Positions 33,748-47,389 of a stretch of 64,000 bases of DNA are shown here, piece by piece. The translations under genes were made by a program, and so were the position numbers. The notes beneath the pieces were generated by a model. It was not told the DNA's origin. It was given only the letters and a program-made list of their open reading frames with translations, and made no database searches. Where the stretch lies: the IMG/VR virus record IMGVR_UViG_3300044981_000214, one strand, 5' to 3'. Numbering within the stretch: the first letter of the stretch is position 1; each line of letters opens with the position of its first letter. Source of the stretch: a virus. Lineage: Duplodnaviria > Caudoviricetes.

Positions 33748-34097
33748 GGCAAGGGCTCCTTGAATGTAATTGCTATTGAGTCTCCTAGTGGTACAGAGGG
33801 CAAATTATCCAATACAGTAGCGATTGCCTCAGGCCTAATCCATGAGGCATGCAGGTGGTGTGATTGACAAGCAATCAATAGATTGTCAGCTAGCGCTTGG
33901 GCAAGCATGAGACCGCTATAACGTTTAGCTGCGATCAACAGTAATGGAAATGGATTAGCTATCTGAATTTCTCGATAACGTCCTGGTAGATCGTTAGTAG
34001 CGCCGAGCTGAATCGGTCCACAAGGTGCCAGTTGAATGGCATAGACTACGGGGACATTGATCAAGCCGTTTAGGTTATATCTGAGGCACAAATCCAT
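33465..34097 (-). CDS. GIY-YIG/T5orf172-like domain protein, possibly degenerate
   Basis: VVYAIQ...PIQLGAT.....RYREIQIANPFPL; C-terminal half overlaps the HTH gene out of frame. Confidence 0.55.
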   Translation of the reverse strand: MDLCLRYNLNGLINVPVVYAIQLAPCGPIQLGATNDLPGRYREIQIANPFPLLLIAAKRYSGLMLAQALADNLLIACQSHHLHASWIRPEAIATVLDNLPSVPLGDSIAITFKEPLPCPTNTPELQLENGTSLGAGKLDLVSELPPRPGQNCGDTATVTSQICLASQSVESGSPSRKVVSTPATCTASACTGSTAFRSKPSKRPKGRGGR

Positions 34098-34229
34098 GGT
34101 TATTACACGTCAGTCTAGCACATCTTGTTGCGCGTAAGTTCCGTTTCTAAGCCGTCGCCTGTATAGTTGTGATCGCTACTGCGATCAATGCTTGACGTAT
34201 AGGAATAGTAGTGGGATATTAGTTATACT

Positions 34230-34316
34230 ATGGCACGTAGAAAGAAGCACTGCGCACACGGTCGTAAGAAGAGCGGAGCCTGCAAGCGTAAGCCAGGCCG
34301 TAAGCGCGGTCGTTAA
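34230..34316 (+). CDS. protamine-like basic peptide 1 (28 aa)
   Basis: MARRKKHCAHGRKKSGACKRKPGRKRGR; TTGACG-N17-GATATT upstream; paralog follows. Confidence 0.7.
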   Translation: MARRKKHCAHGRKKSGACKRKPGRKRGR

Positions 34317-34369
34317 TTTACTCTTTAGTAACCTGTAACCTGTAACCAACTCAAACCAAGGAAAAAACA

Positions 34370-34465
34370 ATGGCACGTCGTAAGAAGAAGCACTGCAAGT
34401 TTGGCGTTGACAAGCGCAAGGGCAAGAACAGGTGCATTAAGCACCGCCGCGCTAAGCGCCGTTAA
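34370..34465 (+). CDS. protamine-like basic peptide 2 (31 aa)
   Basis: MARRKKKHCKFGVDKRKGKNRCIKHRRAKRR; AAGGA RBS. Confidence 0.75.
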   Translation: MARRKKKHCKFGVDKRKGKNRCIKHRRAKRR

Positions 34466-34472
34466 TCTGGAT

Positions 34473-34601
34473 ATGCGTCGCGCGGTATTTATACACACGC
34501 GACCTATTCGTCTTGAAAGTCCGCGAAGGCGCAATAGGATAAAATCTATTGTGCGTCGGCCTGCATATCATGAGTCGCCTCGGCGACGCGCTTATGCTTG
34601 A
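34473..34601 (+). CDS. Arg-rich peptide (42 aa) with ESPRRR repeat
   Basis: MRRAVFIH...ESPRRRN...ESPRRRAYA; stop codon supplied by the IS right end. Confidence 0.55.
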   Translation: MRRAVFIHTRPIRLESPRRRNRIKSIVRRPAYHESPRRRAYA

Positions 34602-35769
34602 TCGGCTTTGCCCTGAAATTCTTTAGGGCTTCTCCTTCAACGACCTTAAATTTCAAGGCCTCCAGAACCCGCAAGCCGCGGGCTAAAATATTTAGGGCTG
34701 CGTTATGGTCGCGGTCTAATGTTAGGCCGCACTGAGGGCAATCGTGTACTCGGACACTCAAGTCCTTAGGTACCGGTTTGCCGCAGCCGTAACAGTCAAT
34801 CGATGTGCCGCTAGGGTTTACTGCCTGTACCCACTTACCAGCTTCTTCCGCTTTGTTAGTAGTACAAATGATGAAGGCACTCCAAGCAACATCATTGATT
34901 GCTTTACTCAAGCAGTGATTACGAACCATTCCTTTGATGTTCAACGCTTCAAAGGCGATGAGGTCGTACTTTGTTACTAACTCCTTTGCGAGGTGTCGGG
35001 CGTGATTGAGTTTCAAGTTCTTGATACGCTCGTAGGCCTTGGCAAGCTGGACCTTAGCTCTGAAACGGTTGTTGGAGTCCTTCTGCTTACGTGCTAGCTC
35101 TTGGTTGAGACGTTTCAACTTAGCTTCAGACTCACGATAGAACCGTGGGTTGGGGATGTGCTCACCGTTAGAGAGCGTCGCGAAGTGAGTCAAGCCGACA
35201 TCGATGCCAATCGCGGTTCCTGTGTTGTTCTTGTTCGGTGAAGGGCCAAGCTCAAGAACTAAACTGATAGCCCAATTCCCTGTACTCTTGTACTTTACGC
35301 TTACCTGCTTTATCTTCGCGTGCGCAGGTATCTTACGGTATAGATTGAATTTTACATAGCCGAGAGTTGGAATCTTGATCCGATTCTTAACTATTCTGGT
35401 CTTAGGGAACGTAAATGAGGCGTACCGGCGCGCACCTTTGTATCGTGGATAGCCTGGTACATCACCTTGCTTCACGCGTCTAAAGAAGGCAAGGAAAGCG
35501 CGATCGAGCCGAGTAATAGCTGACCTAAGAACGTCAACTGAGATTGCGCCCCATTCAAGGTCTTTCCTAAGTTCAGTCAGTTCTATCGTCTGATCAAATC
35601 GACTTATCGCCTTCTTCTGTGTCGTATACGCATGAGTACGCTGTTCCAAACAAGCGTTATAGAGCCAGCGGCAATGCTTGATCCAATCAAATAGTGTCTC
35701 TGCTTGTTTGGGCGTAGGCAATAGCGGATATGTGTAACTACGAAGCAAGCGGACGACATTTAAGCACAT
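34546..35769 (-). CDS. tnpB: TnpB RNA-guided endonuclease
   Basis: HTH LLPT..Q, RuvC-I GIDVG, RuvC-II IAFEAL, Zn ribbon CYGC/CPQC, RuvC-III DRDHNAALNI; catalytic D-E-D intact. Confidence 0.95.
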   Translation of the reverse strand: MCLNVVRLLRSYTYPLLPTPKQAETLFDWIKHCRWLYNACLEQRTHAYTTQKKAISRFDQTIELTELRKDLEWGAISVDVLRSAITRLDRAFLAFFRRVKQGDVPGYPRYKGARRYASFTFPKTRIVKNRIKIPTLGYVKFNLYRKIPAHAKIKQVSVKYKSTGNWAISLVLELGPSPNKNNTGTAIGIDVGLTHFATLSNGEHIPNPRFYRESEAKLKRLNQELARKQKDSNNRFRAKVQLAKAYERIKNLKLNHARHLAKELVTKYDLIAFEALNIKGMVRNHCLSKAINDVAWSAFIICTTNKAEEAGKWVQAVNPSGTSIDCYGCGKPVPKDLSVRVHDCPQCGLTLDRDHNAALNILARGLRVLEALKFKVVEGEALKNFRAKPIKHKRVAEATHDMQADAQ

Positions 35770-35792
35770 GAACCATTACATGACAAGTGGTT
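34598..35792 (-). mobile_element. IS200/IS605-family element carrying tnpB only (IS1341-like)
   Basis: Minus strand: TTAC target, AACCA..TGGTT left hairpin, tnpB, GCCCT..AGGGC right hairpin, TCAA end; no tnpA. Confidence 0.75.
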
Positions 35793-35825
35793 GTAAGACC
35801 TAATTGAATATTGTAAGCTTATCTT

Positions 35826-35954
35826 ATGGCAATCAAACCGATGGTCCTAGGTCTAGTAGGCCGTCGGACAAATAAACGCATTTGTGTAAAGGTCGGTCGT
35901 CGTGTCTACTGCGGTAGACGTGTCAAACGTCAAGCAAGGCTTAAACTTAGGTAG
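35826..35954 (+). CDS. cationic Cys-pair peptide (42 aa)
   Basis: MAIKPMVLGLVGRRTNKRICVKVGRRVYCGRRVKRQARLKLR; TTGTAA-N17-TAAGCT-N6-ATG. Confidence 0.65.
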   Translation: MAIKPMVLGLVGRRTNKRICVKVGRRVYCGRRVKRQARLKLR

Positions 35955-35963
35955 GATCCTGAT

Positions 35964-36251
35964 ATGCCCATTAAGCCAGTAACTGTCATCGCGAAAGGTC
36001 CCCTAAAGAACGTTCAGCGTGCAGCAGCACGTTATGACGTTCCCGTTTCTGACTGTCGAGCTATTGGCGGTGACGTACAGTGTCACACGTTATGCAGCGC
36101 TGAAGCTAATATGGCTGAATGGTTCTCAGCACGTGGGCGTGTCAAGCAGGGAAGAGGATTCCCGCCTGGCACGCTTCTCTATTATTCCGGCAAGTGCGGG
36201 ACACGCGAGCTAGGGACAAGACGTTCGCGTAAACGTACGCGGAGGCGCTAA
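35964..36251 (+). CDS. basic protein with ELG motif and Arg tail
   Basis: Ends GTRELGTRRSRKRTRRR; TAGGAT-N6-ATG. Confidence 0.65.
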   Translation: MPIKPVTVIAKGPLKNVQRAAARYDVPVSDCRAIGGDVQCHTLCSAEANMAEWFSARGRVKQGRGFPPGTLLYYSGKCGTRELGTRRSRKRTRRR

Positions 36252-36256
36252 AAGCC

Positions 36257-36817
36257 GTGCGACGGCATCGTTCAACAGGCTTCGGTGACACGCCTGAAGA
36301 GGCGTGGATGATTGCGCGTGATGCTATTGAGGAGGAAAAGCCAGGCTACCAGGAGCGCGTATCTCAGATAGTTAAGCAGGGTAAAGATTTGCTTAACGCT
36401 GAAGACATTAAGACAGGTAGAAAATCTGTCCCCCGTGACTTGTTGCCATACGACCTCGAACGTAATCCGCGGATCAAGACTACGTACTCGATAATAACAC
36501 CTGAATCAGCAGAAATTGGTGACACAGCAGAACGTGGTTGGATCGACGAGGAAGGCGAATCGATGTTACCCGCTGATGAAGACGAGACAGTCATCGATCG
36601 GGCAGTAGCATTTCTGCTGAGTGAAGGTATTACTGAGTCGTCATCATCGGGCAGTTACGGCAGATGGCCAGGTCCTGGAATTTGGTATTCAACACAATTT
36701 GAAATGGACTATTCTACAGGCAATGAGGAAGAGCGTTCATTTCATCTATATGAGTTTACTGATGACGAGGAGAAAGCTATATACTTTGCCTTGAAGTCAA
36801 AGATTAGATCCCTATGA
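36257..36817 (+). CDS. acidic hypothetical protein with basic leader
   Basis: MRRHRSTGFGDTP leader; TYSIITPESAEIGD..ERGW motif. Confidence 0.65.
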   Translation: MRRHRSTGFGDTPEEAWMIARDAIEEEKPGYQERVSQIVKQGKDLLNAEDIKTGRKSVPRDLLPYDLERNPRIKTTYSIITPESAEIGDTAERGWIDEEGESMLPADEDETVIDRAVAFLLSEGITESSSSGSYGRWPGPGIWYSTQFEMDYSTGNEEERSFHLYEFTDDEEKAIYFALKSKIRSL

Positions 36818-37146
36818 GACGCAAACCTTGTCCAGCTGGCAAGACGCCAGACATCAACCGTGGCGGCTGTCGTCTAATCGGTAAGATCGGCAATCGCCAA
36901 CTGGGCAGCACACGACCGCTAGTTACGAATCCTACTGAGAACGCTGCACGGATCGTTGAACGTGCATTTGAGAACTGCCAGGATCGTCGCGGACGCGCTT
37001 TTTGGCAAAATAATCGCTGGTTCGTTGAAGATGATAAGCGCCGCGTTTATGCTGCTCTAGATGCGTCTCCAGGCTGTGCAGGGTCGAATATTGACTTCAC
37101 CCAAGTGAAGAGTTTTGGGCAGGTCGATAGGAAGAAAAAACGCTGA
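36814..37146 (+). CDS. basic hypothetical protein
   Basis: NRQLGST and SFGQVDRKKKR. Confidence 0.6.
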   Translation: MRRKPCPAGKTPDINRGGCRLIGKIGNRQLGSTRPLVTNPTENAARIVERAFENCQDRRGRAFWQNNRWFVEDDKRRVYAALDASPGCAGSNIDFTQVKSFGQVDRKKKR

Positions 37147-37184
37147 ATTGTGTGATAAGCTAGGTTAAAGAAAGGCTTAATCAA

Positions 37185-37883
37185 ATGGTTTCAGTTTTTA
37201 CTCTAGAGGGCCTTTCTCCACAGCAACTCAGTCTGTTGGGTACACCTACGGACACCAGTTTCTGGAATACCGGTGAGAATTACCAGACACTAAATACAGT
37301 CGCCAAGCCGCCCGCTAACGTTCGTCGCATGGAAAATTATCAGCCTTCTGGATTGCCTCAAGCGATGGCCAATCAGCCAAGCCTAGGCAATCCGCCTATC
37401 CAGTATTTCAACATGAACGACACGGGGCCATTACAGCGGGCTCTGGACAATAGACTGCATTTGGGCGACACACCGATTATTGAATATGGTGTGTTCGCTC
37501 ACAACAATCCACGTATGCTTGGCGACATTGCTACGCAGCCTAGCAACGTTCCAACGAATCCTAATACAGTCTACTACCCTATCAACTACGGTGGACCGTA
37601 TGCGCCACACGGTAAAGTTATCGGACCACAGAGGCCATTCACTTACGTTTACGGTGCAGGTGGTACGCCGACATCGTACGGTTGGACACCTCCGCCACGC
37701 GGCGCGATTACTGATTATGCTAACCCGACGCCCAATTTCGTGTCGTTCAGCGGGCCACAACAGTTAGGCCATTATGGTCACGGCTATCGGTATGAAGACA
37801 GCGACTGTAGCCCGAATTGGGTCGTTGCAGGCGTTGGGATGGCGCTAGGCGCAGCTGTAGTTTGGCTATTGGGCAAACGCTAG
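37185..37883 (+). CDS. LG-repeat Pro/Asn/Gly-rich protein with C-terminal membrane anchor
   Basis: Five LG sites; ends CSPNWVVAGVGMALGAAVVWLLGKR. Confidence 0.7.
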   Translation: MVSVFTLEGLSPQQLSLLGTPTDTSFWNTGENYQTLNTVAKPPANVRRMENYQPSGLPQAMANQPSLGNPPIQYFNMNDTGPLQRALDNRLHLGDTPIIEYGVFAHNNPRMLGDIATQPSNVPTNPNTVYYPINYGGPYAPHGKVIGPQRPFTYVYGAGGTPTSYGWTPPPRGAITDYANPTPNFVSFSGPQQLGHYGHGYRYEDSDCSPNWVVAGVGMALGAAVVWLLGKR

Positions 37884-37916
37884 CGCTGATGGGAGCTTTC
37901 GCGTAGACTGTTAGAC

Positions 37917-38198
37917 ATGAGACAGCTCGTGTTCGCAATTATTGGCTTGGGACGAGAGAATATGGCTCGTGTGACGAGCGCTGATCCACGATGTGCGTTG
38001 GATGTCGCCATCGCACAAGCGCAGGTGCCTCACCCGATTGATAAAGACATTCGTAAGTGTCTTAACGAGATTGTAGAAATGCGGCCCAGCAACGCGGCGA
38101 CTAGCGTTCGGATATCCGAACTACTGATCCGTGGTGATATTGATTACAAGTTTGGCGAAGATTGGACCGTTAGCATCGGAACGGTCGAAGTCATTTAG
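37917..38198 (+). CDS. hypothetical protein
   Basis: TAGACT-N7-ATG. Confidence 0.55.
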   Translation: MRQLVFAIIGLGRENMARVTSADPRCALDVAIAQAQVPHPIDKDIRKCLNEIVEMRPSNAATSVRISELLIRGDIDYKFGEDWTVSIGTVEVI

Positions 38199-38407
38199 AG
38201 CTTAGCAGCTTGGTCCTGTGCGATGTCCTTGCATTCACGCTGTGTCTGCCCTGAGCCGACTATCTTCCAACCGCTAGGGCTCAGAGCAATATGTCTTGCA
38301 GCACAACCCAACGCTGGCCGTGTGCATCCGCCATAGATAGGCGTGATCCACCATTTGCCGCAGTATGATTCGACGTAGTCATTGAACGAACGCTTCCAGC
38401 GAATCAT
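38195..38407 (-). CDS. hypothetical protein
   Basis: Start moved to MIRWKRS. Confidence 0.45.
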   Translation of the reverse strand: MIRWKRSFNDYVESYCGKWWITPIYGGCTRPALGCAARHIALSPSGWKIVGSGQTQRECKDIAQDQAAKL

Positions 38408-38580
38408 TTCTTCAGCTCGCCGTCTGGTGTCGTCTGCGGGTGCTGCGCCCACCACGCATTGAACTTCGCGCTCAGGTCGTCTGGCGACCAGTAGACGCTG
38501 CTCACCTCGTTGGCCGCAGCTTGGTAAGCCTGCCAGGCGACGTCCATCGGACGCAAGAGAGTTCGTTTTTTCTTGGTCAT
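38404..38580 (-). CDS. small hypothetical protein (58 aa)
   Basis: Manually translated MTKKKRTLLRPMDVAWQAY... Confidence 0.45.
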   Translation of the reverse strand: MTKKKRTLLRPMDVAWQAYQAAANEVSSVYWSPDDLSAKFNAWWAQHPQTTPDGELKK

Positions 38581-38584
38581 ATTG

Positions 38585-38683
38585 TTAGCACCAGATCAGT
38601 TGGGCGATAACGGCAATCCAGCCAATTATAATCGACACGCCAATGACAATGTCAAACTTGGTATCTTGTTGTTTGTAAATCAT
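38585..38683 (-). CDS. 32-aa single-TM peptide downstream of SLT gene
   Basis: MIYKQQDTKFDIVIGVSIIIGWIAVIAQLIWC. Confidence 0.4.
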   Translation of the reverse strand: MIYKQQDTKFDIVIGVSIIIGWIAVIAQLIWC

Positions 38684-38698
38684 TGCTATTTGCTTCTC

Positions 38699-39289
38699 TT
38701 ATGACTTGTTCTGTTTATCTGCATGCTCAGCAAGCTGCTTGATTCGACTCATGGCCCACAGGACGTTCTTGGGGTACTGCAGCGTGGTGTAGATGCTCAC
38801 GCCGCTATAGCCTGCGCCATAACCAGCCAGAGCACACTGCAAACGGTCATCGTCAGCTAGACTAGCACAATGCGGATCGTGCATCCAGATTGTTAGCTCC
38901 TTGGCTCCGGTCTCGTAGGCGTAAACGAGATCGGTCCGCATCTTGTCACATTCCTCCCAAGAAATATTGCCGCCGGTCTGGCTGACACCGCAGTAATAAG
39001 TGGGAAACGCGTGGGGCGGCTTCTCGTGAGACGTCCAGGGCGTGGTAACGCGCTTGCAGTTCTTGCCGTCGTCATCACACTCACGACGTGAAAGCGCCAT
39101 GGTATCGTAACGCGATTCAATGAGTGCTTGGCCCAACAGTAATTCGACAGGAAGGCTGTATTTCTCGGCTGCCTTAGTAGCAGCTTCCACGTTGAGTTTG
39201 GCATTATCTTCAGAGAGGCTAAATGACGCACTCTGAGGAAGGTTAGCCGCCATACCGATGATCGCTGTAACGAGAGCTGGAATAGTCAT
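38699..39289 (-). CDS. lytic transglycosylase (SLT-like) with N-terminal export signal
   Basis: LLLGQALIESRYD (catalytic Glu), GVSQT, ALAGYGAG. Confidence 0.7.
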   Translation of the reverse strand: MTIPALVTAIIGMAANLPQSASFSLSEDNAKLNVEAATKAAEKYSLPVELLLGQALIESRYDTMALSRRECDDDGKNCKRVTTPWTSHEKPPHAFPTYYCGVSQTGGNISWEECDKMRTDLVYAYETGAKELTIWMHDPHCASLADDDRLQCALAGYGAGYSGVSIYTTLQYPKNVLWAMSRIKQLAEHADKQNKS

Positions 39290-39398
39290 TGTTGTTGAGG
39301 ACCCTATCTTGTCTGTTTGTCCAGATCAAGGCAGGAGCAGCAGGGATTATTTCGTAGGGTGTAAATCGTTCATTTCTGGTAAGATAGGAAATATCGCC

Positions 39399-39899
39399 AT
39401 GCCTGCTAAGAAACCTGCAGATGTATTGACTATTTCGGAGTTAGCTAAGATGTTCGGCTTGCCGGAATGGGACGAAGTCGATGAAATGAATCTAGATTAT
39501 TATTGGGAGCTTGCGAGGGGCTCTGAGGACGAAACTGAGGCCGAGTCAGCGGCTCAACAAGAGGTTTATGGGCAATGGTACGATGCTGTAGAACAAGTAG
39601 CTGCCAAACTGTTTGGCGAGTACGAGCTTGAACTAGGTCCGCGGAATACCAAAGATTCAGATCGACCGTACGAACTTCGTATTACGCCCAAGACGACATG
39701 GAATGATGCGGCTCAAAAGATCATCAATACCATCAATGGCGTAGGGCACTTTCATTTTTCTTCGCTTAAGGAATTCCTTGACTCTGGACCGTACACAGCA
39801 CGTCAGGCTGTTCTTGAACATCTTAGTTACGTGAGACGTGCGCCTGAGGTCTACGGTGACACTTCACCCCGTCAGCTGTACGAGAGGTATTTCCGGTAA
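39399..39899 (+). CDS. hypothetical protein
   Basis: Start moved to MPAKKP; TGgTAAGAT upstream. Confidence 0.6.
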   Translation: MPAKKPADVLTISELAKMFGLPEWDEVDEMNLDYYWELARGSEDETEAESAAQQEVYGQWYDAVEQVAAKLFGEYELELGPRNTKDSDRPYELRITPKTTWNDAAQKIINTINGVGHFHFSSLKEFLDSGPYTARQAVLEHLSYVRRAPEVYGDTSPRQLYERYFR

Positions 39900-39941
39900 T
39901 TTCTTGCTCTAATCCGGTTTAGACGGTATCGTTCGTTTGTC

Positions 39942-40298
39942 GTGCTAACCGTTACGCGTGAAGGCGCTACGCCCAACATGCTAAAGTACTATATCGTTGC
40001 CGACGAGGACGGCGGAGAAATAGCTATTGCGCGAGAACAGCTATTGAAAGATTGCACCTTCGGGCCTTTGAGAAAATACATTGATTCAGCCGTCAGTCTC
40101 CCAAGCGCTGATGCTGCCTGGCAGTATCTATTCTGCAATACTTCTATACGCGCGCTGCTGACACCAAGAACGTTAGCCAGGACCTGCGTTGATGCCGCAG
40201 TATTGATACCTAGCGGTAAGTTGCAGATCTGTTTTAGAGCAGAACCGAACGCTAAAGCTGTTTTCGCACTTGAATTTCGTCACACTCTATCTGCATAA
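39942..40298 (+). CDS. hypothetical protein
   Basis: ORF. Confidence 0.5.
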   Translation: MLTVTREGATPNMLKYYIVADEDGGEIAIAREQLLKDCTFGPLRKYIDSAVSLPSADAAWQYLFCNTSIRALLTPRTLARTCVDAAVLIPSGKLQICFRAEPNAKAVFALEFRHTLSA

Positions 40299-40306
40299 TT
40301 TAGTGA

Positions 40307-40648
40307 GTGGGATTCAAGATATTGATCTTTGCGTTTATTGGCGCTTCACTAGTATCAGTGCCTAAGGCATCTGCCGTACAAGACCCTGATGAACCTACAG
40401 CACCAATGCCTGACGCTAGGCCTGAACCACATGAACCGCCCCCGCTACCTGACCCGATTCCGGTTCCTCCAGAATCCCCGACTGATCCTGTAGAACTTCC
40501 TCCAGACCAAAATCCATTGCCCGATCCAGAAGACCCGCCTGACAGACCTGGGCCCGATGATTTTAGATATAGCCAAGACCTTCGCAGTTTAGACACGGCT
40601 GCCAGCCTACGCCGAAGCCTACAAAGATCATCCCGACGGGATGATTAA
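40307..40648 (+). CDS. exported Pro/Asp-rich low-complexity protein
   Basis: Signal peptide (..KASA) followed by P/D/E-rich tract. Confidence 0.55.
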   Translation: MGFKILIFAFIGASLVSVPKASAVQDPDEPTAPMPDARPEPHEPPPLPDPIPVPPESPTDPVELPPDQNPLPDPEDPPDRPGPDDFRYSQDLRSLDTAASLRRSLQRSSRRDD

Positions 40649-41042
40649 TCTCGTCCGGTTGCTGCCTGCAAGCCGGACATTGTCGAAGGGCGATCACGCG
40701 ATCGATACACTGCTTAGCCGTCTCATTTTCTTTGGGATCGAGGCTGAGACAAATATAGTCGGTGTCAGTTACTATTGCGTTCGGATCGCCGGTATTTAGC
40801 CGCTCAGCAGCAGCACGAAAGGCATCTGCCTGAAGAGGCACGAAGATCTTGTCTGAATATATGTGATATCGATATCGTGTAAGGTCACCGTAACTGATTC
40901 GATAACTACGATTTCCTGCGACGTGGAATCCCCAATCCGGGCCTTCTTCAATAACTAAGCGTTCCGCCTTAAAATCAGCTTCGATGTTATTAAGCACCAA
41001 TAAAGCCTGCAGGGCTTCCAATTTCTCACGGGGAAGTATCAT
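40563..41042 (-). CDS. hypothetical protein
   Basis: CPAC and CLNC motifs. Confidence 0.5.
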   Translation of the reverse strand: MILPREKLEALQALLVLNNIEADFKAERLVIEEGPDWGFHVAGNRSYRISYGDLTRYRYHIYSDKIFVPLQADAFRAAAERLNTGDPNAIVTDTDYICLSLDPKENETAKQCIDRVIALRQCPACRQQPDEINHPVGMIFVGFGVGWQPCLNCEGLGYI

Positions 41043-41217
41043 GAATCGTACCTGTGCCCGCGGCATTTAAAATATCAGCGCAGCGTGCTCGATGTCCTGG
41101 CCAGTTATGGCCAATCACACGTTCGAAATAACGGGCCATGGTTCGGTCGCCTTTGGCAGCGAACTTTTGGCTAGTGGTGTGCAATAGCTCGTCTGTGACG
41201 TCAGCAACGGTCAGCAT
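41026..41217 (-). CDS. hypothetical protein
   Basis: ORF in operon. Confidence 0.45.
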   Translation of the reverse strand: MLTVADVTDELLHTTSQKFAAKGDRTMARYFERVIGHNWPGHRARCADILNAAGTGTIHDTSP

Positions 41218-41511
41218 TTATGGAATCCTATTTTGGAACATCGTGTCAAGCGAAGCTTCATCTGTGCCGTACATATCCTTGAACTCTTTCCGCGTCATCG
41301 GCCATCTGCCCTTTAATGCACTGCGCAGGTCTCGCGCCCATCGTTGCATCTGTGATACAGCACTAGGCGGCATATTAGCGAAGTCTCCAGTATATGGGAC
41401 ATGTTGACCGCCTTTGCCACGACTCTCGAAATTGGCAATGGCACCTTCAAAAAGGTCGATAACTGCCCATATCGCAGCTCGTAGGCGTTCGGTTTCGTTA
41501 TCACCGGGCAT
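41218..41511 (-). CDS. hypothetical protein
   Basis: GAGGAG RBS. Confidence 0.55.
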   Translation of the reverse strand: MPGDNETERLRAAIWAVIDLFEGAIANFESRGKGGQHVPYTGDFANMPPSAVSQMQRWARDLRSALKGRWPMTRKEFKDMYGTDEASLDTMFQNRIP

Positions 41512-41514
41512 GAA

Positions 41515-41790
41515 TTAAATCTCCTCGAAATCAAACGTATTGAAATCGCCACCTTGATGCTCACATAACGTCCCATAAGTCATAGGAACACAAACACCAT
41601 CAGGGGATTGGATAGCCCAACGACAAACACGCGCGAGTGGACAGTGTATTTTCTTGGTCAGGTTACCTACAGGAATCGTTTCAGGTGCTGTACATCGTTT
41701 GGCTAGCTTACCCCACCAAGCATGGCATTGAGTACAGGGCTCGTGGGTTAACTGTGTCACGCCTCCGACGGACGGACATTGAATCTTCAT
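41515..41790 (-). CDS. Cys-rich hypothetical protein
   Basis: 8 Cys. Confidence 0.5.
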   Translation of the reverse strand: MKIQCPSVGGVTQLTHEPCTQCHAWWGKLAKRCTAPETIPVGNLTKKIHCPLARVCRWAIQSPDGVCVPMTYGTLCEHQGGDFNTFDFEEI

Positions 41791-42149
41791 GATGATAATG
41801 GCTTAGGGCACTGCCTAAGCGCTTCCTTGATCACATGGTCAACAGGTGCGTCGTTGCCGAGTTTGGCTTGAGCTGCATCGACAGCAGGAAACGCGACTCC
41901 AGGTTTGAATCCTAGTGTAGTTAGCGCCTTCCTGGCGTCATCACGAGTAGCCTTAGAATTGTATCCCGTATCGCCGGGATCACGCGAACGTGCTTGAACC
42001 ACACGTCTTGGAGCGCAACCCTGTGCGCTCGAATCTATTTGCTGGCGACGGTTCCCTCTAATTCGATCGGCTACAGCATCGATGACAATGCCGAACGCGA
42101 CTAGAAGCGCACCTGTACCAAGCAAGAAAATGTCGTTCCATGACAACAT
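41787..42149 (-). CDS. membrane-anchored protein with RuvA C-terminal-like domain
   Basis: N-terminal TM; DARKALTTLGFK...AV.......VIKEALR. Confidence 0.6.
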   Translation of the reverse strand: MLSWNDIFLLGTGALLVAFGIVIDAVADRIRGNRRQQIDSSAQGCAPRRVVQARSRDPGDTGYNSKATRDDARKALTTLGFKPGVAFPAVDAAQAKLGNDAPVDHVIKEALRQCPKPLSS

Positions 42150-42271
42150 CTAAAAAGCTCGCCACATCCAGTAGGCAATGCAGATCAGGACAATCTGAAC
42201 AAAGAGAAAGTGTAGCGCAAAGGCAACTAGAGCGCCTAAGTCGCCGTTGTGAAGCCATTTAAGGAGATTCT

Positions 42272-42487
42272 TCATTTGCACTTTCTCAGCAGCTCCGAGT
42301 CGAAATAGTGCGAGCCTGCCCCTCCTGCCCAAACTTCACGGCCACCGCAACGCTTGCAGGTACGAACAGACCCGAACCTGTCATTGCTGGCGCAAGCGAC
42401 TATCGTTGACTCTTTGCGGCCGAATTGATGCGAAGCATCCGGCTTCGCATCCATCATGACCATTTCCATGTTAAGGGCGTAGATCAT
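42272..42487 (-). CDS. hypothetical protein
   Basis: CKRC motif. Confidence 0.45.
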   Translation of the reverse strand: MIYALNMEMVMMDAKPDASHQFGRKESTIVACASNDRFGSVRTCKRCGGREVWAGGAGSHYFDSELLRKCK

Positions 42488-42774
42488 AGAGCGAGCGCTC
42501 CAACGCCAACCCAGCCAAAATCGCCGGTATCAGTCTCTACCAGAGCGTCCAGGTATTCAACCTGTCCAATGTCCTTGTAGGAATAGCCTTCACCGTCGGC
42601 CCACTTAGAATAGTCGATGACTATGGTCTTGATGCGCACCACTGTCCCTGCCTTGAAGACGTCAATGACAGGAGAATTTTGGGTCTGTTCGCCGTTGATA
42701 GGCTCACGGCGCATCTGAACCCCGGCTGACGTCTTAGCCTTGACGGTAGCCCCTACAACAATTTCATTCGACAT
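42484..42774 (-). CDS. hypothetical protein (SH3-like beta composition)
   Basis: Start moved to MSNEIV. Confidence 0.5.
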   Translation of the reverse strand: MSNEIVVGATVKAKTSAGVQMRREPINGEQTQNSPVIDVFKAGTVVRIKTIVIDYSKWADGEGYSYKDIGQVEYLDALVETDTGDFGWVGVGALAL

Positions 42775-42982
42775 TAGGAGACCTCGCGACCCATTGCCAT
42801 CCAAGCTCATCTCGAACGATATTGAGCCAATCCGCACAATCGCAATCGGCCATCAACGGGTATTTATAGAATTGAGATTTGTAGAATTGAGCGTAGTCCT
42901 TATGAAAAAGAACGATTCCAAGCAACGCTGCAGTGATGTTGTCCATGCCGGACATGGGATGAGGTGGAATAACGTAGTCCAT
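42764..42982 (-). CDS. hypothetical protein
   Basis: ORF in operon. Confidence 0.45.
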   Translation of the reverse strand: MDYVIPPHPMSGMDNITAALLGIVLFHKDYAQFYKSQFYKYPLMADCDCADWLNIVRDELGWQWVARSPNVE

Positions 42983-42983
42983 G

Positions 42984-43241
42984 TTAATCCGCCGACTTCT
43001 TCATGCGCGTAGTCTTGGCGTAGAAAGCATCCGCTCCGTTATTAACAGCTTCTTCGTAGGCCTCGTTTGCCTCAGCCTCATCACGGTAGAAGGACACCGT
43101 GGTCTCGACGCCCCAGAAAGCAACCACAACCCAAGCACGGCCCTTGGAGGTGTCCCACGACTTCGGAGTAGCACTTGAGCCCTTGGGGTGCACAGCGGCA
43201 ACGCGGTCATCATAAGACGATTTATTCGGCTTATTGCGCAT
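42984..43241 (-). CDS. hypothetical protein
   Basis: GGAGG RBS. Confidence 0.55.
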   Translation of the reverse strand: MRNKPNKSSYDDRVAAVHPKGSSATPKSWDTSKGRAWVVVAFWGVETTVSFYRDEAEANEAYEEAVNNGADAFYAKTTRMKKSAD

Positions 43242-43242
43242 T

Positions 43243-43413
43243 TTACGCAGCCTCCCTCTTCAGGAACGTGCAGAAAATCTGCCCATTGCCCCTCAAATCG
43301 GTGCAGTAAACGACGCCACGATCCTCAAGCTCGTGAGCGATCTTGGTGTCAATCCACATCTCGCCATAAAGCTCGATGTCGCGGGCGATACGATTGAGTC
43401 GGTTGTTCTTCAT
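43243..43413 (-). CDS. hypothetical protein
   Basis: Start moved to MKNNRL, 11 nt after ECF-like motif. Confidence 0.5.
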   Translation of the reverse strand: MKNNRLNRIARDIELYGEMWIDTKIAHELEDRGVVYCTDLRGNGQIFCTFLKREAA

Positions 43414-43423
43414 TTGCGTCAAT

Positions 43424-43449
43424 AACGATCGTGGATAGACGGTTATTTC
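43424..43449 (-). promoter_or_regulatory. ECF-sigma-like promoter
   Basis: GAAAT-N17-CGTT. Confidence 0.6.
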
Positions 43450-43657
43450 TGGTTCTTTGTCCCACCGCACAAATATCCAGCAGGCGACAGTGGGCAGTCT
43501 TCTTCATGCATTTCTAGACCGTCACAAATAGCGCATGTCTCTAGTTCCTCAAAATCAATGACTTTAGCAATTGTCCCGAGGGCTGATTGAAGCTGGTTGA
43601 TAGAAGGCAAGTCCGGGCCTGGAACCTCGACTTCAATATAAATAATGCGTTTGGACA

Positions 43658-43978
43658 TTAGTCGGTCCAATCTGCTGTAGCAATCTTGTGACAGGATTCA
43701 CAAAGGCCATCAACGTACTTAATTCGCCGCTTGTCGCAAGAATGACACATCACACGATGCGCAGGCGGCACATCGGGTGACTTCTTCAATGCGGTGATGA
43801 GGCGCTGAATCAACCTGACAGCATCCCGGTTAACGTCATGGGACTCCCAGTCTACATCAATCCAGTGCTGAATCTGTTCAAGCTGTTTAGCTGTGACAGG
43901 TCCTGAACGATTAGCAAGCCAGTGCAGGCTGACAGCGTCTAGTTTGGATCTAGTCATCGTCTCGCTCTTCAACATCAT
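43658..43978 (-). CDS. hypothetical protein
   Basis: CHSC and CESC motifs. Confidence 0.5.
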   Translation of the reverse strand: MMLKSETMTRSKLDAVSLHWLANRSGPVTAKQLEQIQHWIDVDWESHDVNRDAVRLIQRLITALKKSPDVPPAHRVMCHSCDKRRIKYVDGLCESCHKIATADWTD

Positions 43979-44177
43979 TTAAGCGATCTCTAAGGTCCGT
44001 TACACTGCTTGCGAGAATTCTTTCTGAACCGTCATAGGTAAAGCCGTCGTGGAGGATAACCATGACAAAACTAAAATCGCCTTCGCTCTCCTCGACTGTA
44101 GCTTGACGTATAAGAGCGATTCTAAAGTCCTTAGCGACGTGGTTCCACTTGGCTTTGCCTGTTATATTCTTGTTCAT
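43950..44177 (-). CDS. hypothetical protein
   Basis: ORF in operon. Confidence 0.5.
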   Translation of the reverse strand: MNKNITGKAKWNHVAKDFRIALIRQATVEESEGDFSFVMVILHDGFTYDGSERILASSVTDLRDRLNDVEERDDD

Positions 44178-44206
44178 TACGTTGCCTTTGTTTGCCTTTG
44201 TAAATA

Positions 44207-44425
44207 CTACTTACACCCGGGTCCGCAGCCGCCCGCAGCGATGCAACGCTTACACGTAACCTTACTGGGATCGTCAGTCGTGTTGGCGTTGGGCGGAATT
44301 TCTGTACGCTCACGACACCACAGGGTGTCGCCTCGCGAGCCGATCGTGCCTCCCTCGATTAGAAGGTGCGTAACTGTGCGCCAGTGCGGTCTACGAATTC
44401 GCGCTGCAAGGCTTCTTGCAGTCAT
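44207..44425 (-). CDS. hypothetical Zn-binding protein
   Basis: H...C...VTCKRC. Confidence 0.5.
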   Translation of the reverse strand: MTARSLAARIRRPHWRTVTHLLIEGGTIGSRGDTLWCRERTEIPPNANTTDDPSKVTCKRCIAAGGCGPGCK

Positions 44426-44429
44426 GATG

Positions 44430-44912
44430 TTACTCGGTCTCGATTCCGAGGACCTTGACCTTTGGGAAGTCGTCCGTCTCGATTCCGAGGACCTTGATCA
44501 GCAGGTCACGAGCAGCGTCCAGTGCTCCCTCAGCCGACCCCAGGTCACCGTACTTACGGGCCGTACGAGACACGTCCAGATGGCTGATAGCGCGTGCGAT
44601 CATGTCAACGGCCTCGCCAGCACCAAGCTTCTCGACAAGATAAGCAGCGCGCTCGCGGTTAGTTTCCGAGATATGCCCCACCATTTGATCCATCTCTGTA
44701 GTCTGCACTGCGCCTCCGGCTACGGCCGTCACAAAGAACGGATAGCTTCGCGTGATCTCGGTCTCCAGCTTAGGCTTAGCCTTGTCATTCTCCTGGGAGT
44801 AGATCTTAATAGTCCACACCCCAGGCCGTGCCTTGGAAGCGTTAAGCGGGTTCAAATAAGAAGTAGTAGGATAAGAAGTAGTAGGAGCAATCTTGGTGTT
44901 TGTGTCCTTCAT
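44430..44912 (-). CDS. hypothetical protein with short internal duplications
   Basis: PTTSY x2 and KVLGIET x2. Confidence 0.6.
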   Translation of the reverse strand: MKDTNTKIAPTTSYPTTSYLNPLNASKARPGVWTIKIYSQENDKAKPKLETEITRSYPFFVTAVAGGAVQTTEMDQMVGHISETNRERAAYLVEKLGAGEAVDMIARAISHLDVSRTARKYGDLGSAEGALDAARDLLIKVLGIETDDFPKVKVLGIETE

Positions 44913-44920
44913 ATCAACCC

Positions 44921-44946
44921 AACGCCACTCTACTAGCGCCTATTCC
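44921..44946 (-). promoter_or_regulatory. ECF-sigma-like promoter
   Basis: GGAAT-N17-CGTT, ATG 9 nt after CGT. Confidence 0.65.
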
Positions 44947-44963
44947 AAAAATCAAGTCAAGAG

Positions 44964-45551
44964 CTAGTCGTCATCCGAAACTCCCCCAAGTCCTTGTACC
45001 AGCGTACCTAACGCCGGAGGTCTTAACCCGGCCTTAAGGTAAGGGTAAGCCAAAGCTGTTGGCTGTGACTTAGCCATCTCGATAGCCACCATGCAGGTTT
45101 GCCTGATGGACGAACATACAGGAATATTCGGGTACGAGAGCTGTAGTCGCCTACGTAGGTAGGCCCCTCCAGTAAAACCCCGTTCAAACCCCACGACTAC
45201 ACGGGCAAGGCCTGCCTGCGACTTGATAGCCCACTCTCCAAGCTCGAATCGTGCCGCTTGGGCATAACTGCGATTGCAGCGGTGCGAAGTCTCCTTTGGA
45301 AAAAGAAAAAGCTGCACCCCGTTGACAGCTGCTTGCTCTTGCAACACCCGCGACCATTGAAGCTGATCTTCGAGCTTGCCGTTAAACGATTTGGCGCGTG
45401 GGTTAGCAAAGTGCATATTTCTTGACGCGTGCTGCGTCAAAATCGCTAGTGCTTCGCGTTGCCACTCCGCACAGCCCTGAATGGGACCATTCAAGTATAT
45501 CAACGGCTCGGATAAAGGCTGTTGAGGGAGATCAGGTGCAGTGAAAATCAT
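44964..45551 (-). CDS. nucleoside 2-deoxyribosyltransferase-like protein (second type)
   Basis: IYLNGPIQG..EWQ, ANPR, QLQW, RFELGEW. Confidence 0.75.
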   Translation of the reverse strand: MIFTAPDLPQQPLSEPLIYLNGPIQGCAEWQREALAILTQHASRNMHFANPRAKSFNGKLEDQLQWSRVLQEQAAVNGVQLFLFPKETSHRCNRSYAQAARFELGEWAIKSQAGLARVVVGFERGFTGGAYLRRRLQLSYPNIPVCSSIRQTCMVAIEMAKSQPTALAYPYLKAGLRPPALGTLVQGLGGVSDDD

Positions 45552-45566
45552 GGTAAACTATTTAAT

Positions 45567-46178
45567 ATGCAACCGCTTGGGGATGTACAACCGACCCAAC
45601 AAATTTTCGAGTTTTCTTGTGGCAGTGCGGCATTAAAGGCCGTTCTAAAGCATTGGGGTATGGATGTTGACGAACCGACACTAATTGATCTTATCGGTGT
45701 AGACCCAAAGACAGGTAGCACTGCGTACCAAGTCGAGCGTGCCGCAAAGAAGCTCGGGTATCAAGCCATAACTTTTGAGTTCGACAACGTGGAGGAACTT
45801 AAACCTTTCGTCGACAATCACGTGCCCGTCATCATGGCTATCCAGAGCTTCAAACGGCCAGATCAAGGGCACTTCGTCGTCGGAACGAAAGTCCAAGACA
45901 ACACAATCGATATTATGGACCCAAACGTCAAAGGCAACTGGCGGACGATCTCGAAAGCTGAAGCTACTCGACGCTGGAAGTTTCGTGACAACGTGGGCAT
46001 TGTGGTAACGCCTAAGTCAGGTTTGGGGGAATTGGATTGGGTACGGTCAAGAAATCGGCAAATGTACGATTATGGTCGTGGGGTTGGAATTGCCGAAGAT
46101 GCCACCTGTAATCCACTTCTTTGGGCCGTCGGAGGGATAGCTGCTACGTTAGCTGCGGTGTGGCTGATTACGCGCTAG
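45567..46178 (+). CDS. stand-alone C39-family cysteine peptidase with C-terminal membrane anchor
   Basis: Q....SCGSAAL..VL..WG, GHFVV, IMDPN; TM tail; start moved to MQPLGD. Confidence 0.85.
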   Translation: MQPLGDVQPTQQIFEFSCGSAALKAVLKHWGMDVDEPTLIDLIGVDPKTGSTAYQVERAAKKLGYQAITFEFDNVEELKPFVDNHVPVIMAIQSFKRPDQGHFVVGTKVQDNTIDIMDPNVKGNWRTISKAEATRRWKFRDNVGIVVTPKSGLGELDWVRSRNRQMYDYGRGVGIAEDATCNPLLWAVGGIAATLAAVWLITR

Positions 46179-46444
46179 CACTTTTCTTTGAAAACGGCGT
46201 CTCCGCCACCCCACGATGTTCCTATTAGGCCAAACAACAGTGAAAATAGAAACGAGTTGTTAGGACAGCCCGACGGTGAAGCTGAGGGCGATACTTTATC
46301 GAACATAATATCTGCTAAAACGCCTAAAGCTAACCCGACGCTACTTCCAATTGCTACTCCTTTAATGTATTGGCCTTGCGTAATAGGGCACGCCGTTTTA
46401 GTTGTATCTCCTAATTGGTGCACATTTCGCCTATTTCGTCTCAT
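46175..46444 (-). CDS. two-TM protein with basic leader and QLG|D motif
   Basis: MRRNRRNVHQLGDTT; TGTGATAAT-N6-ATG. Confidence 0.6.
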   Translation of the reverse strand: MRRNRRNVHQLGDTTKTACPITQGQYIKGVAIGSSVGLALGVLADIMFDKVSPSASPSGCPNNSFLFSLLFGLIGTSWGGGDAVFKEKC

Positions 46445-46461
46445 CTTCTGATTATCACACG

Positions 46462-46489
46462 AAAAAAAAAAACACTAGCGCGAAGTAGT
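46462..46489 (-). terminator. possible intrinsic terminator after tnpB remnant
   Basis: Weak ACTA..TAGT stem followed by an 11-nt T run on minus strand. Confidence 0.4.
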
Positions 46490-46521
46490 AAGACCTAATT
46501 ACGTGCCTATCCGGTTAACGC

Positions 46522-46852
46522 TCATTGAGCAACCCGGCTTCCCTCAACAGGAGGCTGATGACAGATCTTAGCTAGATCTACCAGCTGTCTTTTCGACAAC
46601 GCACTCAGCCCGAGATTAAGTATGTTCTGTGCCGAGTTCACGTCTCGGTCGTGGCTAGCGCCACATTCAGAACATACCCATTCCCTTATTCCAAGACCTG
46701 CGATACCTTTCGGCCTCGACTCGGGGATAATTCCACAAGCCGAACAGGTTTGGGTCGTGAAACGCTCTGACACTTCTTCGAATATCCCTTGGCGCCTTCT
46801 GGCCTTGTAATCAAGGGCTTGTTTGGAAGCGTACCAGCCTGCATCATAGATT
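46522..46852 (-). pseudogene. tnpB: 3' remnant of a second tnpB (Zn ribbon, RuvC-III, omega-RNA region)
   Basis: In-frame IYDAGW....LDYKA...EVSERFTTQTCSACG..PKGIAGLGIREWVCSECGASHDRDVNSAQNI; N-terminal two thirds absent. Confidence 0.88.
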
Positions 46853-47124
46853 GTTGGGTTCTCGCAGTACCGACAGACCTAACAAATGCTCTACAGGCAG
46901 TATTGAATATAGGCAATCATGACTTGGCGAAAGAGTTAGCGAATGATGCAGGCTGGTCTCTAACATTGGTTCATACCTTCCAATCCTGGGGACCGAATTA
47001 TTACCAGTTGAGCATCAGAAGTGAGACGCCCCCTTTATTTGAAAGACATATGTATTTAATCTACATAGACCGTGTATTAGAATACGTTCCCTGCCCCAAG
47101 GAACGTGTTCATACCTATGTGTAA
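46789..47124 (+). CDS. hypothetical protein (paralog of next gene)
   Basis: ALQAVLNIG...AKELANDAGW; true start uncertain. Confidence 0.5.
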   Translation: MAPSGLVIKGLFGSVPACIIDCWVLAVPTDLTNALQAVLNIGNHDLAKELANDAGWSLTLVHTFQSWGPNYYQLSIRSETPPLFERHMYLIYIDRVLEYVPCPKERVHTYV

Positions 47125-47389
47125 CGACGGCGAGACTAGCCACGATTTCCTTGAGGCTCTTCAGGCCTTACTAAGGGTAGGTACAGACGAGGCTAAAGGC
47201 ATCGCGAAACAGCTTTGTCTCGATGCAGGATGGATACTAACCACCTATTCCAGCTTTGATAACGAGCCCTTTTGGGAACTGCAAAATTTTACAAGATACC
47301 CTGGTAAAGTCTTATATAGATATGTCCTCACTGATCGGATATCCGATTTGAAGACTTGGTACCCTGACACACTTGATATACTGGAGTAA
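47105..47389 (+). CDS. hypothetical protein
   Basis: ALQALLRVG...AKQLCLDAGW. Confidence 0.55.
   Translation: MFIPMCNDGETSHDFLEALQALLRVGTDEAKGIAKQLCLDAGWILTTYSSFDNEPFWELQNFTRYPGKVLYRYVLTDRISDLKTWYPDTLDILE

Follow-up and report, generated by a model that had tools for sequence, protein, structure and literature searches.

A decayed TnpB locus in a phage genome retains a complete omegaRNA scaffold and shares a 13-nt sequence with the junction of a second TnpB element

Can a decayed TnpB locus go on supplying a guide RNA that acts on another transposon of the same viral genome? The question is raised by the virus record IMGVR_UViG_3300044981_000214 (Duplodnaviria; Caudoviricetes), of which a stretch of 64,000 nucleotides, hereafter the window, was analysed. 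On its minus strand a truncated tnpB gene at 46.5 kb (the remnant) is followed, where the guide of an omegaRNA would lie, by the 13-mer AATTAGGTCTTAC, and the same 13-mer stands 10.7 kb away, directly beside an intact TnpB element of another family (tnpB-1) at 35.8 kb. An initial annotation of this DNA had proposed that the remnant may be a stand-alone guide RNA gene directed against that site. Here we describe the anatomy, boundaries, homology and empty sites of the two loci, and infer from them how the match arose and what activity, if any, the remnant might have. Most likely the match is not a regulatory circuit. We give roughly an even chance to its having arisen passively, without a function, from AT-rich TAATTAGG-type sequence common to the two transposon insertion sites, with a possible extension by short-patch recombination or by chance.

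The 13-mer occupies positions 46500-46488 and 35805-35793, exactly and on the minus strand in both cases, as initially described. The window holds these two exact copies only, in line with the earlier reading by eye, and no third one was found in a count covering the window and ~8.6 kb beyond it. From 46516 to 46462 the minus strand reads ...AACCGGATAGGCACG TAATTAGGTCTTACTACTTCGCGCTAGTG followed by a run of 11 T (T11), and from 35813 to 35784 it reads ...ACAATATT C AATTAGGTCTTAC AACCACTTG.... A t/a mismatch and then AC follow the 13-mer at both sites, which accounts for the previously claimed extension to 15/16, and nothing extended the similarity of the two sites past 15/17 positions. The reported spacing at the intact gene is likewise correct, the 13-mer ending 23 nt before the first ATG of tnpB-1. 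One copy of AATTAGGTCTTAC with two mismatches also occurs in the window, which is the chance level, and the sub-word GGTCTTAC is also found there at chance frequency. A phage-RNA-polymerase promoter or other widespread motif was rejected as an identity for the 13-mer, given its two copies and the chance frequency of AATTAGG. Similarly, att-like repeats bordering a 10.7-kb island were rejected, since a related virus keeps the gene order across both ends.

The feature at 46.5 kb is the 3' (right-hand) third of a TnpB gene of a family here called tnpB-2 (Table 1). Its 113 in-frame codons (46863-46525) match Pfam Cas12f1-like_TNB with an E-value of 1.3e-14, in the TNB part only, so that both the in-frame translation and the Pfam match bear out the earlier statement that only the tnpB 3' end is kept. 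At the same locus, a related virus (L029) encodes the full-length orthologue P0001, a protein of 374 aa that is 95% identical to the remnant and is followed by the same flank, T-run (T12) and downstream genes as in the window. The DNA of the remnant is 97.7% identical to this orthologue, and homology between the two viruses extends over 2.4 kb from 46851. The DNA that the window contains upstream of 46855 is unrelated to L029 and includes two paralogous plus-strand open reading frames (ORFs). No left end was found for the remnant, and within the window the repeat is present just once, at its right end. Between the two viruses, remnant and flank agree at 98-99% of positions and the next 400 nt are almost identical, in the neighbourhood of genes that are 80-90% identical. 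Over 350 nt, eight substitutions separate the remnant from L029, four synonymous and four not, and conservation is no better than in the non-coding flank. Because of this near-identity, and because the same flank stands at the intact orthologue, the guide position holds the ancestral flank; on the same comparison the loss of the left two-thirds of the gene is recent and the guide sequence is older than the truncation, being present at P0001. Two Logan contigs from the same sample both end inside the remnant, as calculated from contig coordinates; such breaks would be expected if a second locus carried the same repeat.

A covariance model was built from an alignment of 25 tnpB-2-family scaffolds, with 19 base pairs of which eight show compensatory changes. 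Its single full-length match in the window is the remnant, which scores 153.9 bits against only 21.8 bits for the 3' end of tnpB-1; this is the scan of both 3' regions that the initial annotation had suggested, and the hairpin GCCGG..CCGG described there is the last helix of the conserved scaffold. A search of Rfam gave no match. Conservation in the tnpB-2 family, judged from more than 20 independent elements in metagenomes and viral contigs, ends at AACCGGATARGCACG (GCACG), and the next base varies. Since the family conservation stops at this right end, the guide starts at 46501 (T) and the 13-mer corresponds to guide positions 2-14. The guide start assumed earlier is thereby revised: the match does lie proximal to the transposon-adjacent motif (TAM), and it does not begin at position 1. 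The weak stem and T11 reported behind it are present, with T11 at 46472-46462, and the fold before T11 is no better than that of shuffled sequence (z -0.44). A consensus scan called no sigma-70-like promoter for the remnant.

The two viruses differ at the right-end junction, where L029 carries eight extra bases, ATTAACGT, between GGCAC and GTAATTAGG, so that its guide starts with TTAACGTG. This 8-nt difference (L029:3876-3883 versus window 46502/46501) separates segments that are otherwise 98-99% identical, and its length is that of the target duplication of the family. The right flanks of the relative's P0002 (TAATGAGG, L038:778-785) and of P0001 and the remnant (TAATTAGG, window 46501-46494) share 7/8 bases, with unrelated flanks beyond. 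On this similarity, an 8-mer of the TAATTAGG type recurs at tnpB-2 junctions in this virus lineage.

Outside the window, the 228,894-nt contig that carries the proteins of the window encodes a full-length tnpB-2 paralogue, P0281 (373 aa), which shares 99% identity with P0002 of the relative and 88% with the remnant. P0281, P0001, P0002 and P0003 align with a D, an alternative E and a D, represented in P0281 by GIDLG, SERFTTQTC and DRDVN, and the full-length members of the family carry the alternative RuvC-II glutamate signature SERFTTQTCSAC, which corresponds to ExxxxxxCxxC as defined previously (PMC10711439). The scaffold at the P0002 locus (L038) is ~87% identical to that of the remnant. Elements of this family are bounded by 15-bp terminal inverted repeats, C[A/G]TGCYTATCCGGTT ... 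AACCGGATARGCACG. The elements in L030-L109 and L001-L027 are ~1.15 kb long, with an end structure unlike those of IS200/IS605 and IS607. Direct repeats of 8 bp are perfect in L047, in L050 and at a miniature element of L029, and the duplication at P0003, a third copy in the relative, agrees at 6/8 positions; the matching right-hand duplicate is absent from most tnpB-2 copies. The miniature element (L029:7167-7421) has 255 bp, encodes no protein and combines the same inverted-repeat family with a perfect GATTAATC duplication. The bases before its duplication are CGA, off the A-T-R pattern described below.

P0003 in its occupied state reads TTATG/CAGACAGC/element/CAGATAAC/GTATGACG, with junctions in L029 and L113, and the window contains the empty sites of both P0003 and the miniature element. 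The agreement of occupied and empty sites fixes the boundary of the tnpB-2 family and its 8-bp duplication. The family is an inverted-repeat TnpB transposon of the alternative RuvC-II glutamate clade and makes 8-bp duplications. The three bases that precede the duplicated 8-mer follow the pattern A-T-R: of 17 independent left flanks, 15 have T in the middle (p 7e-8), and the third base is G in 9, A in 6, C in 2 and T in none. This motif is the likely TAM, as an empty site shows it on the 5' side of the protospacer (TTATG/protospacer). The empty site for P0003 offers a near-match to the P0003 guide after TTATG, which would be a natural homing target if the two viruses co-infect. No close relatives of either TnpB or of a neighbouring C39 peptidase were found in IMG/VR, and no near match was found among deposited phages.

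The second locus belongs to a different kind of TnpB. In a Protein Data Bank search, tnpB-1 matches the ISDra2 TnpB over residues 11-366 with an E-value of 1e-47, and its catalytic triad, read from the translation, is the canonical D-E-D (GIDVG, AFEAL, DRDHN). Its closest homologues, of 371 aa, are 57% identical in a large protein set, and reference genomes reach only 41%. The initial view that the two TnpBs represent different subfamilies agrees with their identity of 32%, their alternative versus canonical RuvC-II glutamates and the covariance scores given above. Sequence comparison suggests that the true start of tnpB-1 is ~7 codons downstream, at TTG 35748. At its other end the ORF (34546-34654) reads ~36 aa past the C-terminus of the homologues, across the probable right end into the flank where the guide region lies. 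That right end is probably TCAA at 34598, by analogy with the scaffold layout shared with L137, and this position would explain the read-through tail of 36 aa. No hairpin folds at the left end (free energy, dG, -3.5; z +1.2). Insertion 3' of a tetranucleotide, subterminal hairpins and the lack of a target duplication are typical of IS200/IS605; the TTAC junction, the probable TCAA junction and the empty site in relatives would fit this group, and no relative exceeds 57% identity to fix the ends. A silent insertion at a stop codon was set aside, as the ORF concerned overlaps, in another frame, a conserved 31-aa peptide gene.

Related viruses (L112, L113, L114) have no tnpB-1, and in L112 and L113 its site is empty. 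There, two basic-peptide genes lie 55 nt apart, and the spacer is a strong hairpin (dG -27.8, z -4.0) with TAATTAGG on its plus-strand arm and AATTAGG on its minus-strand arm. The whole 13-mer is absent from the inter-peptide spacer of the relative, which lacks tnpB-1 and shares the first 8/13 bases. Two very basic, two-cysteine micropeptide genes, 34372-34467 (31 aa) and 35826/35841-35954 (~37-42 aa), are adjacent in L113 (2190-2330) and split by tnpB-1 in the window; by homology, ATG 35841 is the likely start of the second peptide. The element inserted after TTAC between two small basic-peptide genes. Two further origins of the 13-mer at this site were considered and rejected. It is not part of the tnpB-1 left end with a second tnpB-1 relic at 46.5 kb, as neither copy is preceded by TTAC and the two places have nothing else in common; nor does similarity run on across the tnpB-1 insertion, where a position-by-position comparison of the flanks matches at 5/15 positions.

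Read as a target, the 35.8-kb site consists of TATT, a C (opposed to U in the guide), 13 matches, a mismatch and two matches. Its TAM position is therefore ATT where A-T-R would be expected from the 17 flanks and the TTATG empty site, and guide position 1 is mismatched. A consensus scan called no sigma-70-like promoter at this target, and the divergent promoter initially assigned here, with TTGTAA as its -35 box, agrees with the consensus at 8/12 positions and was not called either. The plain alternative offered at the time, that the 35.8-kb site keeps the trace of an earlier tnpB-2 insertion, gained no direct support either: no end of the tnpB-2 family is present there, and for want of an inverted repeat this origin was rejected.

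Table 1. Coordinates of the features at and between the two TnpB loci (positions in the window; slashes separate flank, duplicated 8-mer and element or flank)
Feature	Position	Strand	Basis and remarks
tnpB-1 ORF, 407 aa	34546..35769	-	HTH_OrfB_IS605, OrfB_IS605 and TNB (Pfam)
tnpB-1 element, IS605-type, tnpB-only	34598..35792	-	Left junction TTAC/ at 35793/35792; probable right end TCAA/ at 34598
Second copy of the 13-mer	35790..35810	-	TATT, C, AATTAGGTCTTAC, aAC; flank directly left of the tnpB-1 element
Empty site for P0003	40274..40298	-	TTATG/CAGATAGA/GTGTGACG; compared with occupied junctions
Empty site of the 255-bp miniature element, GATTAATC	40643..40650	-	Window ACCGGACGA/GATTAATC/ATCCC at 40650; clean
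T11 run after weak stem, likely transcript end	46462..46472	-	Sequence; T12 in L029
Guide position, native right flank	46473..46501	-	Boundary analysis; same flank in L029
Right-end terminal inverted repeat AACCGGATAGGCACG, 15 bp	46502..46516	-	Conserved in >20 independent elements; flanks diverge directly after
Complete tnpB-2-family omegaRNA scaffold	46502..46689	-	Covariance model R1, 153.9 bits, E 9e-37, full length
tnpB-2 3' remnant	46525..46851	-	TNB zinc-finger and RuvC-III part, in frame; stop codon 46522-46524
Recombination breakpoint	46852..46855		Removed 5' two-thirds of tnpB-2 and left end; no L029 similarity detectable upstream of 46851

TAAT[T/G]AGG is found both at a pair of tnpB-2 junctions and in the ancestral hairpin of the 35.8-kb site, which suggests related insertion-site sequences, in keeping with a passive by-product. 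In that case the remnant RNA, if made, would be loaded on P0281 and would cut sister genomes without the element at the 46.5-kb locus, and the 35.8-kb site would be at most a weak off-target. Several observations weigh against a passive origin. Related insertion-site sequences leave the further TCTTAC not fully explained, and AATTAGG is not over-represented in the window, with 7 copies versus 7.8 expected. The similarity sets in one base beyond the right end of tnpB-2 and breaks off at the left junction of tnpB-1, two limits that a passive origin does not jointly predict. Moreover, the window lacks ATTAACGT exactly at the right-end junction, and only in this genome, which has the 13-mer target as well, does TAATTAGG... 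thereby come to lie at guide position 1; the same genome encodes an intact paralogue, P0281, with its catalytic residues and with a scaffold that, judged from the P0002 locus of the relative, is ~87% identical to that of the remnant. A 10-nt guide lets wild-type TnpB bind its target without cutting (PMC13507860), and TldR repressors, which are derived from TnpB, use guides of 9-16 nt at promoters (10.1101/2023.11.30.569447); the 13 contiguous TAM-proximal matches exceed both that 10-nt guide and the 9-11-nt guides of some of these natural repressors. A purely coincidental match of unrelated sequences is unlikely in our judgement. It would agree with the limit of the similarity to 15/17 positions, with the presence of only two copies and with the finding that 1.9% of random 20-nt probes from the window match at least 13 nt elsewhere, in a scan that covers very many windows. 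Against it, the match runs from guide position 2 up to the junction of the other transposon, and the homologous site of the relative shares its first eight bases; that the similarity is bounded by two transposon junctions is an added coincidence, which makes pure chance unlikely, though not negligible for a large scan.

Two alternatives give the remnant an activity. In ordinary homing or marker exclusion, it would be kept as an extra guide with which P0281 cuts co-infecting relatives that carry an uninterrupted 46.5-kb site, and the 35.8-kb match would be irrelevant. The guide is the native flank, as in canonical TnpB systems, and empty targets evidently circulate: the two related viruses differ in their tnpB-2 content, and in place of P0003 and the miniature element the window has clean empty sites in which TTATG adjoins the protospacer. 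The near-identity of remnant and flank amid less similar neighbouring genes also fits, but could equally reflect a recent exchange of segments between the viruses; no genome with an empty P0001 site was found, no promoter was predicted, and cross-loading of the remnant RNA on P0281 is a putative step. We regard this alternative as unlikely. An orphan guide acting in trans, whereby the remnant omegaRNA on P0281 would bind the 35.8-kb site without cutting and would damp transcription of tnpB-1, of the divergent peptide gene or of both, we hold to be unlikely as well. It draws on the intact scaffold, on the 13-nt match at guide positions 2-14, on a P0281 encoded in the same genome, on the 8-nt junction difference that puts the match in register only here, and on the short guides already mentioned, both those that bind without cleavage (PMC13507860) and those of 9-16 nt that natural TnpB-derived repressors use at promoters (10.1101/2023.11.30.569447). 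Against it, ATT at the TAM-like position occurs in 0/17 left flanks and not in the empty site, the first guide base does not pair, the scan called a promoter neither for the remnant nor for the target, the remnant is not specially conserved, and P0281 is not nuclease-dead, unlike known RNA-guided repressors. The single relative has neither the register nor the target: the covariation of guide and target in related phages that the initial annotation had looked to is not seen, the guide of this relative being 8 nt out of register and its site sharing 8/13 bases.

The initial proposal of a stand-alone guide RNA gene therefore divides into two parts. A complete stand-alone scaffold and guide module, a TAM-proximal match and a cognate TnpB in the genome are borne out, and its use in repression finds no support, given ATT in place of A-T-R, the mismatch at position 1, the missing promoter call, the apparently active protein and the one relative without a matching guide and target. 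In its fullest form, the proposal would have the decayed locus act as a stand-alone guide RNA gene whose guide is used in trans by the active paralogous TnpB on the left junction and promoter region of the other-family element, without cutting, after an 8-nt junction deletion had tuned the register; this chain of events is very unlikely.

Known systems resemble the locus in part. Like the OMEGA systems of IS200/IS605, e.g. ISDra2, it combines a TnpB with RuvC and zinc-finger parts, a guide scaffold overlapping the 3' end of the gene, a guide taken from the flank after the right end and a motif 5' of the target in empty sites. In contrast, IS200/IS605 have neither the 15-bp inverted repeats nor the 8-bp duplications of the remnant's family, and the gene beside the RNA is truncated here. 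Stand-alone omegaRNAs, or gene-less right-end remnants, were reportedly described by Altae-Tran et al. in 2021. As in these, the scaffold has no working nuclease gene beside it and a full-length paralogue is encoded elsewhere in the genome; unlike these, its guide partially matches, over 13 nt, a second site of its own genome where another TnpB element has its junction, and its use in trans is putative. Palindrome-associated transposable elements (PATEs), the miniature derivatives of IS200/IS605, are likewise decayed and protein-less with a retained right-end RNA scaffold, but PATEs keep both ends and stay mobile, whereas the remnant lacks its left end and a true 255-bp miniature of the tnpB-2 family exists in the related virus. 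TldRs, some of which are phage-encoded, share a guide RNA derived from the transposon right end and a complementarity of 9-16 nt at or near a promoter (10.1101/2023.11.30.569447). They differ in being full-length and catalytically dead, next to their own guide RNA, with conserved guide-target pairs and a TAM, whereas here only a fragment of a gene adjoins the RNA, D-E-D is retained in the paralogue, the TAM-like position is off and guide and target are not conserved in one relative. Finally, P0281 and the remnant share ExxxxxxCxxC (SERFTTQTCSAC) with the alternative-glutamate TnpBs and Fanzors (PMC10711439), and inverted repeats and duplications with some Fanzor carriers. The differences from this group are a prokaryote-type virus as host, the absence of the GG crossover dinucleotide or GGG TAM of IS607/ISXfa1, and GIDLG instead of DPG in RuvC-I.

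If the remnant RNA were used in trans at 35.8 kb, nature would offer an example of an orphan guide that turns an active TnpB against another transposon, whether to regulate or to combat it, and a step between selfish homing and domesticated RNA-guided repressors. Independently of this, the analysis yields a cleanly bounded stand-alone omegaRNA in a 229-kb phage, and it describes a TnpB family whose elements have inverted repeats and 8-bp duplications and whose target motif is inferred to be A-T-R. As occupied sites can be paired with empty ones across two related viruses, the system lends itself readily to bench experiments.

Two further observations concern the DNA around the loci. Tandem plus-strand small ORFs at 46789-47124 and 47105-47389 have a common motif, ...ALQAVLNIG...DAGWSLT in the former and ...ALQALLRVG...DAGWILT in the latter. 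The first of them now begins inside antisense tnpB-2 sequence, and it may have received a new 5' end in the recombination that truncated tnpB-2. In addition, the block 34090-34445 is 100% identical to L113 beside genes that are only ~75% identical in protein, and a second near-identical block shared with the related virus extends from 46100 to 46851. These identical blocks point to mosaic exchange between the viruses.

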